From positions 10,658-59,436 of the forward strand of contig CAZPIG010000002.1 of assembly GCA_964586205.1 (NCBI GenBank): DNA of 48,779 bases, written 5' to 3'. Positions 28,968 to 30,899 of this stretch are shown here, in pieces (position 1 is the first letter of the stretch; every line of letters begins with the position of its first letter). The notes beneath the pieces are model-generated. The model saw only the letters and a program-made list of their open reading frames with translations, had not been told where the DNA came from and searched no databases. Origin of the DNA: an uncultured Halobacteriales archaeon. Lineage in GTDB: Archaea; Halobacteriota; Halobacteria; Halobacteriales; CAZPIG01. Made by a program: the position numbers and the translations under genes.

Positions 28968-29335
28968 GGTTCGACGGGCGTGGGCAGCGAGGAAAACGGT
29001 TTGGGAAGGAATCATTTTAAAGTTTGTAGAGCATGAGCCTTATCTTCTAAATGGATTGCGAAAGGTAGTGAAATATGAAGGTGTGACGAGAAGTGACGCC
29101 TGACCAGTGGATTGCCGGCTAGATTTCCTAGAATAATTGTAACGTAAAGGGGTAAAAACGTTTCCCTGCGTCAAAATTCTCGTTTAAACATAGCTAAAAC
29201 ACGAATGTTCTTGGGAATTGGTGATATTTTGGCATTCCTAGGGTCCAGCTTGGTCCTACTGCGGGTTTCTCGAAAACTAGCAAAGGGAAACTGGTTCCAA
29301 TAAACTTATAAGCGATGGGGGGTAAAACTCCGATT

Positions 29336-29653
29336 GGCTACGACGCGGTGGGAAGCGCTTTTCTCACCGCACTTATAATATTACGGAGAGCCATCCTTTT
29401 AAGTCACGACTCTAGTTTAAGTAGGGTCATCGTCCTCTCGACCACTTTCACTCCGGTATCACTACATTAAAGGCCATTGAATTGGGGTGAGGTGAATCAA
29501 ATGTTCGAACTCGTAAAACGGGCGTTAATGATGTCCTACTCTGTTACAAACCCATTCCAGTGATTCTAATCCGGGCGGATAGAATCGAAAGGCTTTATTA
29601 CCTTTCGGCCGAACGACCTGCTGGGAGCGAGATTCTCCCACCGCGTCGTAGCC
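29336..29653. repeat. 18-bp perfect inverted repeat pair (ggctacgacgcggtggga 29336-29353 / tcccaccgcgtcgtagcc 29636-29653)
   Basis: Verified base by base; 282 bp separate the arms. The left arm also forms a local 10-bp hairpin (29345-29354 with 29361-29370, one G-U pair). Confidence 0.9.
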
Positions 29654-29885
29654 AGACGCCAACTGAGGCCGCGGAGGTTCCGCGGAACCAATATACGCCC
29701 TCGGGCGATGCTGGAGTTCACCCGGCATCGCGGGAGCAGGTCCTCCGTTGACCTGCATTTGCAAGGCAAGAACCCGCGATGTCGCCTGCCCAGCGACGAC
29801 TCTGAGGGTTGCCTTACCGGGGGCATCCGGCCTCGAAATATGACCGCGAGTAAACAAAGGACCACCCCCGCCAAGGGGGTATGAG
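29560..29885 (+). ncRNA. Candidate structured RNA or long structured 5' leader upstream of the ParB/Srx-like ORF (strand assumed from the downstream gene)
   Basis: There is no credible ORF here. Eight hairpins read by eye: 29562-68/29580-86; 29586-92/29601-07; nested 29607-09, 29613-17, 29623-27 with 29635-39, 29645-49, 29651-53; 29669-75/29679-85; 29705-14/29722-31; 29736-42/29750-56; 29763-69/29809-15 enclosing 29781-85/29793-97; and 29865-69/29875-79. Confidence 0.3.
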
Positions 29886-29888
29886 ACG

Positions 29889-30899
29889 ATGAGTTCGAAC
29901 AGCAACCAACCCCAGAATGGGTCTGGGGCACCAAGCCCGGGTCCGGATCCCACCGAGGAGATACCGGACACGATTCCGGCAATCGAGGAGCAACGGGTCC
30001 TGGTCGGCTTCATGGGTCCCGACGATGCTGTGGGGTGGCTCCAACAGTCCAAGCGGGTTCGGAACCCCATCGACCTCGCCGAGCGAGAGGAGATGGACGA
30101 AGCCGAAATCGAGCAGCACCAGGAAGCCATCCAGCAACAACTCCTCGACGAGTGGGAGGCTGCCCAGAAAGCCATCCCCGAGATCGAAGGAGTTGGGGCC
30201 GGCAGCTTCGGAGTGGAGGAACTCCCAAACGACCCGGCCGTTCAGAGCCACCTCGACGAGTACGCGGGGAAAGACGGCTTCCAGGAGGCGATGAGCGATG
30301 TCCCCGACATCGAGTGGAAGTTCAAGCGGGTCCCCATCGCGGCCCTCGTGGCGTTCCAGCCACAGGTCACTACGACCGCGTACGAGGACATTTCCACCTG
30401 GAGCGAGGACCCGGCGGCAGTCCTGGAGTACTGCTTCCCGACCGAACAGTCGACCCTCCAGATGACCGGGGTTAACGCTGACGATGACGGCAACCGCGCG
30501 CAAGCCTTCATCGTCAGCCGGTCGCCGAACTTCCAACTCGGTGGCGTCGGTATCGACTCCGGTGGGCCAACATCGGACATCCAGGTCCAGGTGAAACCGA
30601 AGCCGAACTTCCTTCAGGTGGTTCGCTTCCAAGACCGGTACATCCTGAAGAACGGCTATCACCGGACCTACCAGCTGATGCAGGCCGGCGAGGAGTTCGT
30701 CCCAGCAGTTGTCCACGAGGTGGACGACTACCAACTCACTGGGGCAGCCAAAGAGGGCGCCTTCCCGCCGGAAGTGGTGCTGGGCGACCGGCCCCCGATG
30801 ATGCCGGACTTCAACTCCGGCGCGGCCGTCACTCTGGAGACGCCAGCGACCAACACGGTCATTGAAGTGGTGGCGGACAAGAAGCAGATTCCCCGATAG
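29889..30899 (+). CDS. Orphan protein (336 aa) with a possible ParB/Srx-fold C-terminal region
   Basis: Clean ORF with intermediate GC. WKFKRVPIAALVAFQPQV and later PNFLQVVRFQDRYILKNGYHRTYQLMQAGEEFVPAVVHEV resemble the ParB/sulfiredoxin (DGQHR/GxxR-type) core. The N-terminus is disordered and is followed by an acidic coiled segment. Confidence 0.7.
   Translation: MSSNSNQPQNGSGAPSPGPDPTEEIPDTIPAIEEQRVLVGFMGPDDAVGWLQQSKRVRNPIDLAEREEMDEAEIEQHQEAIQQQLLDEWEAAQKAIPEIEGVGAGSFGVEELPNDPAVQSHLDEYAGKDGFQEAMSDVPDIEWKFKRVPIAALVAFQPQVTTTAYEDISTWSEDPAAVLEYCFPTEQSTLQMTGVNADDDGNRAQAFIVSRSPNFQLGGVGIDSGGPTSDIQVQVKPKPNFLQVVRFQDRYILKNGYHRTYQLMQAGEEFVPAVVHEVDDYQLTGAAKEGAFPPEVVLGDRPPMMPDFNSGAAVTLETPATNTVIEVVADKKQIPR

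Follow-up and report, generated by a model that had tools for sequence, protein, structure and literature searches.

The closest analogue in logic to the locus described here appears to be the folding pathway of the hok mRNA, from the hok/sok type I toxin–antitoxin system of plasmid R1 and its relatives. On the nascent hok RNA, the 5′ element tac first pairs immediately downstream and later pairs with the distant 3′ element fbi, in a closing, stabilizing 5′–3′ helix (PMC9841398). Riboswitch leaders that are closed by a P1 helix share one strand of that helix with a competing local hairpin of near-equal energy, lie upstream of one gene and hold a conserved ligand pocket. Invertons such as fimS have perfect inverted repeats of 9–30 bp around a few hundred base pairs of AT-rich DNA (spacer of 100–700 bp), with promoter-like boxes within and a gene downstream; putative invertons have been reported from archaea, including a haloarchaeon (bioRxiv 10.1101/2023.03.11.532203). 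In retron msr–msd regions, inverted repeats (a1/a2) close a structured non-coding segment of a few hundred nucleotides beside a gene.

Here we describe a locus within a 48,779-nt stretch of DNA from an uncultured Halobacteriales archaeon (the window; GenBank assembly GCA_964586205.1, contig CAZPIG010000002.1) that resembles each of these systems in part. On balance, we lean towards reading its long-range inverted repeat as a P1 helix in a cis-acting 5′ leader RNA of the + strand, with a conserved hairpin that competes for one of the helix strands; the leader would, in our reading, be a new structured RNA with a conserved three-way pairing switch. As in hok, a segment near the putative 5′ end (X, the inner half of the 5′ arm of P1) can pair with a neighbour (Y) and then with a distant segment (Z, the inner half of the 3′ arm), and the partners likewise covary three-way. 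The differences are substantial, however. The hok system is bacterial and this locus is archaeal; the hok fold-back closes an entire mRNA of about 400 nt for a small toxin, whereas P1 would close only the first 320 nt of a leader; Sok, an antisense RNA, and 3′ trimming act against hok, whereas no antisense RNA is known here; and in place of a small toxin ORF we find no conserved small ORF inside P1 and a downstream gene of 336 aa. With neither a sequence nor an Rfam relationship between hok and the leader, membership of the hok family was rejected.

A long-range inverted repeat ahead of an orphan gene

The two arms of the repeat (29335–29353 and 29636–29654) are 19 nt long, 100% complementary and separated by a 282-nt spacer; each is one base longer than in the perfect 18-bp repeat that a sequence-only reading had reported at this site. 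They sit within an 873-nt AT-rich intergenic gap (29016–29888) that is bordered by a divergent amidohydrolase gene and by a + strand ORF of 336 aa, with a GC content of 39–47% in the gap versus 66–79% in the flanking genes; the immediate neighbours encode the amidohydrolase and a DUF6517 lipoprotein. The features discussed below are listed here, with L005–L008 denoting the loci of the four closest homologues of the 336-aa protein.

29305–29312, + strand: TATA-like box CTTATAAG, about 25 nt before the left arm; putative leader promoter
29335–29353, + strand: 5′ arm of P1, TGGCTACGACGCGGTGGGA; putative 5′ end of the transcript; covaries with the 3′ arm over five loci
29345–29370, + strand: competing 5′ hairpin, X (29345–29354) with Y (29361–29370); 10 bp, one of them G-U
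29371–29622, + strand: AT-rich, mostly fast-evolving interior of P1; GC 0.46–0.51 in the five loci
29623–29639, + strand: hairpin Hb, GGGAG-cgagatt-CTCCC with stem 29623–29627/29635–29639, adjoining the right arm on its 5′ side with a 4-nt overlap
29636–29654, + strand: 3′ arm of P1, TCCCACCGCGTCGTAGCCA; P1 pair probability 0.86–0.97 in the five isolated domains
29669–29685, + strand: hairpin H3, CCGCGGA-ggt-TCCGCGG, just 3′ of the right arm
29687–29697, + strand: motif ACCAATATACG, which reads ACCAAATCTACGA in L005–L007 and ACCCAAACTACGA in L008
29698–29888, + strand: GC-rich, hairpin-dense remainder of the putative leader, including CCCCC-gccaa-GGGGG (29865–29879)
29889–30899, + strand: 336-aa orphan gene (from the ORF listing) that the leader would serve; weak ParB/Srx-like fold

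A search of the 48.8-kb window for the 19-mer, with as many as three mismatches permitted, returned the two arm sites alone (0.06 expected from shuffles). The 391-nt region was single-copy by BLAST in its own assembly (2.94 Mb, 61.5% complete), and a pattern search of the same assembly for the 19-mer with up to two mismatches likewise returned a single copy, so that the genome-wide search proposed with the sequence-only reading brought up no further copies of the arms. A 691-nt region had no BLAST match in 60 genomes of the same order, and the sequences flanking the arms, CCGAT (29330–29334) and GACGC (29655–29659), do not form a target-site duplication. Together, these results indicate that the repeat is not a multicopy element. 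The pattern GGTGRGAA-N(4–10)-TTCYCACC, modelled on the competing hairpin, matched five other genomes among 400 of the class, none of which has the long-range repeat. The exact 14-mer CACTTTCACTCCGG gave 94 matches in viral contigs, which we take, by assumption rather than calculation, to be mostly due to chance. Elsewhere, the window contains a perfect 28-nt inverted repeat with a 93-nt spacer near its end (48546–48573/48667–48694, CCGAAAAAGGTCGATCAAAAATTGGCGT) and a 34-nt inverted repeat, 97% complementary, with a 940-nt spacer (10238–10271/11212–11245), within which a further repeat of 18 nt and 94% complementarity is nested (10369–10386/11097–11114).

The 336-aa ORF belongs to no family in Pfam, NCBIfam or PADLOC. 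Its AF2 model (pLDDT 77.8) found its best fold matches in the PDB in Noc, ParB, Atu1540, PadC and Srx (sulfiredoxin), all with E of at least 0.1; the matches cover the ParB N-terminal/Srx core only, and no DNA-binding helix-turn-helix was detected in them. Because these matches are weak, a ParB/Srx-like core is plausible for the modelled protein but not established. Close relatives amount to a handful among 5.8 billion clustered proteins, and two protein searches together with scans of metagenome and genome contigs yielded no additional close homologue; one entry, P0012, is a truncated gene fragment. On two metagenome contigs (L113, 1–520; L114, 1–380), a 70%-identical homologue is represented by no more than about its C-terminal third; the homology ends abruptly upstream, which indicates a truncated or rearranged gene copy from which the leader is absent. 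In bacteria, tblastn found distant homologues (24–25% identity, E 1e-7 to 7e-5) on plasmids of alphaproteobacteria. The gene order in the two contexts inspected (L122, NZ_CP016459.1, 1334–6482; L123, NC_011887.1, 3593–8441) is an ORF of 51–60 aa, the homologue, and then a peptidase-domain ABC transporter and an HlyD adaptor, with a 2OG-Fe(II) oxygenase between the homologue and the ABC transporter in one of the two. Such a layout is typical of peptide maturation and export clusters.

The arrangement resembles a retron msr–msd region in that a1/a2-like repeats close a structured non-coding segment of a few hundred nucleotides by a gene, and the sequence-only reading had offered this as one explanation. 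It does not hold, as no reverse transcriptase is encoded next to the repeat: the ORF downstream matches no family and has a weak ParB/Srx-like fold, the upstream gene encodes an amidohydrolase, and PADLOC recognized no retron component beside the element in the window.

Complementarity is maintained across five loci

The proteins encoded at L005–L008, all on metagenome contigs, are 58–61% identical to the 336-aa protein, and each of their genes is preceded, at the equivalent site, by an 18–19-nt inverted repeat of different sequence.

L005 and L007: arm TGCCACCGAAGCGGTGAG, 18 nt; spacers of 278 and 280 nt
L006: arm TGCCACCGGAACGGTGAG, 18 nt; spacer of 276 nt
L008: arm GTGGGTCTAGTCCGGTGGG, 19 nt, one mismatch; spacer of 340 nt

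Across all five loci (the window and L005–L008, of which three are closely related and all are from metagenomes), the arms are 276–340 nt apart and the repeat ends 150–292 nt ahead of the start codon. Alignment of P1 over these loci gave 91 paired cells out of 91, with none broken, and 10 of the 19 pairs (16 cells) were altered on both sides. The sole G-U among the 91 cells stems from a U-A to U-G change in L008. None of 500 shuffles reached the observed pairing and compensation, and registers slid by 1–3 columns gave only 31–47% pairing. Two arm positions set L006 apart from L005 and L007, each with a mirrored change in the opposite arm, and in general the arms are identical within a locus, yet differ between loci at up to 12 positions. 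At the loci of homologues with 31–49% identity we found no comparable repeat. That pairing is kept despite sequence change, and only among close homologues, indicates that complementarity itself is under selection and tied to this clade of the gene; the check for co-variation of the arms at orthologous loci that had been suggested from the sequence alone was thus borne out. Each arm in L005–L007 is in addition a small palindrome, CACCG-nnn-CGGTG, a feature absent from the arms of the window and L008, and the two substitutions that distinguish L006 fall within its 3-nt centre.

A conserved hairpin is predicted to compete for the inner half of P1

In the window, X can pair with Y as well as with Z. 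Folding the first 46 nt gives the X:Y hairpin, whose G-U pair is G29351–U29364, as the structure of minimum energy (−17.0 kcal/mol, z = −3.45). The local hairpin between 29345–29354 and 29361–29370 proposed earlier is real. An equivalent hairpin of 9–11 bp (−15.8 to −18.4 kcal/mol) is present in all five loci, with the consensus GGTGRGAA for X, and the stems differ between clades.

Window: GCGGTGGGAA/TTCTCACCGC
L005–L007: GGTGAGAAC/GTTCTCACC
L008: CCGGTG-GGAAC/GTTCC-TT-CACCGG

One position varies in all three partners at once (X G/A/G, Y U/U/C, Z C/U/C). When prefixes of growing length were folded, the probability of X:Y was about 0.9–1.0 in four of the five loci until Z was included (about 0.99 in the window), and in L006 it was 0.04–0.67 at intermediate lengths and back to 0.99 just before Z. 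Once Z was included, the probability of P1 rose to 0.86–0.97 in all five loci. The P1 domain as a whole folds better than its shuffles (z = −4.3). With X:Y enforced, the outer 10–12 bp of P1 still form and the inner half alone is exchanged. The full P1 fold is favoured over the X:Y-enforced fold by −0.4 (L005 and L007), −3.8 (L006), −6.7 (window) and −7.2 (L008) kcal/mol. These values assume 37 °C and standard salt parameters and can serve as no more than an indication for a haloarchaeal cytoplasm.

These results retain the core of the sequence-only reading, that a long-range helix and a local hairpin compete for the same bases: both pairings occur in all five loci, with compensatory changes and similar predicted energies. 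They modify its view of two mutually exclusive conformations, closed and open. X does have two rival partners, but the persistence of the outer 10–12 bp with X:Y enforced confines the competition to the inner half of P1, and with X shared by Y and Z the architecture is that of a three-way branch-migration switch rather than of a domain that simply opens or closes. A local fold of the right arm had been proposed as well. Its GGGAG/CTCCC hairpin, our Hb, is real, whereas the pairing of 29607–29617 with 29645–29653 is weak: it consists of 3 + 5 pairs with interruptions, appears in one alternative fold of the window only and has no counterpart in the four related loci.

Conserved elements of the putative leader

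The TATA-like box reads TTTTTATAC in L005–L007 and CTTTAAGA in L008, where it lies in an otherwise GC-rich upstream stretch. Its distance to the left arm is 22–25 nt in all five loci, which makes a transcription start at the first bases of the left arm likely. Sequence conservation downstream of this point is uneven. Among L005–L007, in which codon third positions have an identity of 0.54, identity within the domain is 0.65–0.90 over its first 40 nt and its last 80 nt, and the remainder of the leader is at 0.55–0.85, versus 0.15–0.35 for two segments of the interior and 0.70–0.80 for a central island. In the window this island is CACTTTCACTCCGGTA (29443–29458), followed by the TATA-like sequence ATTAAAG; the 16-mer is common to the window, L006 and L007, with one change in L005.

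Both hairpins that flank Z recur at the other loci. Hb is found in all five, with its loop CGrGAy kept and its stem changed to CGGAG/CTCCG in L005–L007 and GGGGTC/GACCCC in L008. Every locus has a GC-rich hairpin just past the right arm, H3 in the window, in which L005–L007 show compensatory and G-U changes. The motif ACCAAAnCTACGA comes next; the consensus fold of L005–L007 places the motif version ACCAAATCTACGA in a hairpin loop, predicted to be unpaired. From the right arm up to the start codon, the sequence contains no oligo-T terminator. A second long-range helix, of TTTCACTCCGG with CYGGGAGCGAGA, was not reproduced in the L005–L007 alignment and showed no covariation. Comparison of the sequences documents that the arms are selected to stay complementary, that the competing hairpin and the promoter-like box are conserved, and that the element is linked to the gene.

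Several further candidates within the leader were examined. In the window, a segment of the P1 interior (29502–29514) in which a 20-codon mini-ORF begins can form 13 bp with 29889–29902 in the start-codon region, and at one transcript length the resulting fold beats the P1 fold by 3.9 kcal/mol. Pairing of the interior with the start codon was nevertheless rejected, as it is significant in the window only and not kept in the other four loci. The mini-ORFs of the interior run to 20, 25, 5 and 0 sense codons in the window, L005, L006 and L007, respectively, and their sequences are unrelated. An ORF of 35 codons (MRANAIPPNGGTT...DDEPPS..ER) is open in L005–L007 without indels and overlaps the main start codon through ATGA (L005 1425–1532, L006 705–812, L007 647–754; leader nt ~499–606). 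Its variable columns are spread 8/13/13 over the three codon positions, which gives no clear coding signal, and its equivalent in the window has 14 codons only and ends at 29884. ARAGORN detected no tRNA or tmRNA. An archaeal bulge-helix-bulge processing stem was also rejected: P1 is an uninterrupted 18–19 bp in all loci, and the bases next to it do not make up the motif, with its two 3-nt bulges separated by a 4-bp helix.

Compared with riboswitch leaders, the locus has the same sharing of a helix strand between P1 and a local hairpin at near-equal energies, upstream of one gene. Unlike them, it has a poorly conserved interior in place of a ligand pocket and no conserved terminator or platform that sequesters the start site, and a perfect P1 of 18–19 bp is unusually long. 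Known riboswitches and other RNA families were rejected on the covariance models of Rfam 15 (4,227 families), none of which reached its gathering score in the window or in the five related loci L005–L009; matches at E ≤ 10 were at chance level only.

Strand of action and alternative explanations

Folding statistics do not discriminate between the strands, as z (−4.33 versus −4.55) and SCI (0.75 versus 0.73) are nearly equal on the two. Other observations favour an RNA of the + strand, as judged from sequence features: the promoter-like box just outside the left arm, the co-orientation of the element and the gene, the conserved structured sequence that reaches up to the start codon, and the conserved X:Y hairpin together with the two non-Watson–Crick pairs (the U-G of P1 in L008 and G29351–U29364 in the window), each of which is G-U on the + strand and an A-C mismatch on the − strand. 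By-eye inspection found no convincing promoter on the − strand. From these features we infer the start, the extent and the strand of the transcript.

An RNA of this strand need not be a cis-acting leader. On the unlikely side, but to be taken seriously, is the possibility that the domain, of about 320 nt, works in trans or makes up a stable small RNA of its own. It could be a free-standing non-coding RNA protected by its paired ends and possibly a partner of the ParB/Srx-like protein, or an upstream transcript that stops before Z and whose 5′ end pairs with Z of an mRNA started at an internal promoter, which would be placed about 27–31 nt ahead of Hb. TATA-like elements do stand at a similar distance, 26–31 nt, before Hb in all three clades, and others follow the central island in the window and L005–L007; should they be internal promoters, as they could be, the pairing would be intermolecular or have a different role. 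Z lies between two conserved hairpins like a landing pad, the first 10 nt are free in the hairpin state like a seed, and the RNA and the gene always co-occur. Against this, TATA-like hexamers are expected by chance in an interior of 46–51% GC, there is no conserved oligo-T terminator in the domain or after Z, conservation continues after Z up to the start codon as it would in one continuous leader, and the 19-mer with up to two mismatches has no other match in the genome. More doubtful still is that the repeat acts in DNA, be it as the recombination sites of an inverton or as inverted binding sites for a protein (operator, centromere or origin-like copies around the AT-rich stretch, kept identical by recombination or by the shared protein). 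The layout is the usual one of invertons, with arms of 18–19 bp, an AT-rich spacer of 276–340 bp, TATA-like boxes and a gene downstream, and one G-U in 91 cells makes P1 nearly pure Watson–Crick, few for an RNA helix and suited to a DNA-level repeat as well. ParB proteins bind inverted repeats and the neighbouring protein has a weak ParB-like fold, but only the ParB N-terminal/Srx core is matched, with no helix-turn-helix detected. An inverton would also leave two conserved features unexplained, the promoter-like box that lies outside the repeat and the X:Y hairpin, which uses half of one arm, and all five assemblies show a single orientation, with Y by the left arm and Hb, with its CGrGAy loop, by the right. 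An inverted interior in L008 was considered and rejected: a 9-mer and a TATA-like stretch match the window in reverse, but the alignment scores at the shuffle maximum, and both ends of the interior run in the same direction as at the other loci. Neither flanking gene encodes a recombinase, although invertases can act from a distance. Binding sites would be expected to drift at positions that the protein does not contact, whereas the arms are identical at each locus with up to 12 differences between loci, and both mismatches are G-U on the + strand.

That the repeat is a relic of a miniature inverted-repeat element (MITE), with the arms as its terminal repeats, is barely credible, even though its size of 320 bp, its perfect terminal repeats and a GC content below that of the host would fit, and the sequence-only reading had listed it. 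The element has one copy in its 61.5%-complete assembly and none in the 60 same-order genomes; the five hairpin-pattern matches among 400 genomes of the class come without the long-range repeat; and there is no target-site duplication. Moreover, it sits at one position ahead of orthologous genes whose identity has fallen to 58–61%, and a dead insertion of such age would have lost its perfect arms, which instead diverged while staying complementary.

Proposed mechanism and significance

Returning to the cis-acting leader, which we favour, we infer that the pairing acts in RNA, in cis, and that its regulatory target is the downstream message. Transcription from a promoter about 25 nt ahead of the left arm would yield a + strand 5′ leader of about 555 nt. 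In it, P1 would pair the transcript's first 18–19 nt with a segment that lies about 300 nt further on, and close an AT-rich domain of about 320 nt ahead of the GC-rich, hairpin-dense stretch and the start codon. On the nascent RNA, the X:Y hairpin would form first and leave the first ~10 nt single-stranded; once Z is transcribed, these free nucleotides may nucleate the outer half of P1, after which X could shift between Y and Z through branch migration. As the end states are predicted to be nearly isoenergetic, a protein, a ligand, salt or temperature could tip the balance, and a shift between X:Y and X:Z may alter the stability or the translatability of the downstream message. Archaeal RNase J enzymes require a free 5′ end, and P1, which would bury the 5′ end in a duplex, should protect from 5′-to-3′ decay. 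The P1 clamp would also set the geometry of the leader. The leader may have a riboswitch-like or attenuator-like role, as first suggested for this site.

To our knowledge, haloarchaeal mRNAs are mostly leaderless, and structured regulatory leaders have seldom been described in the group. The comparative signal at this locus is unusually clean, with all pairs kept, ten compensated and the competing hairpin conserved. We put forward as rather unlikely, though worth stating, that the leader of about 550 nt represents a kind of regulatory RNA new to Halobacteria, in which a conserved, near-isoenergetic three-way branch-migration switch, made by the initial 40 nt together with a site 300 nt downstream, is controlled either by a cellular signal or by the ParB/Srx-fold protein itself. 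Given the distant bacterial homologues in peptide-maturation and export clusters, the leader RNA could gate a haloarchaeal modification system so far undescribed. If the segment is invertible DNA instead, it would be among the very few phase-variation switches of archaea. If the switch is real, it would offer a tractable case of sequential or bistable RNA folding at high salt, and a handle on an uncharacterized family of ParB/Srx-fold proteins.
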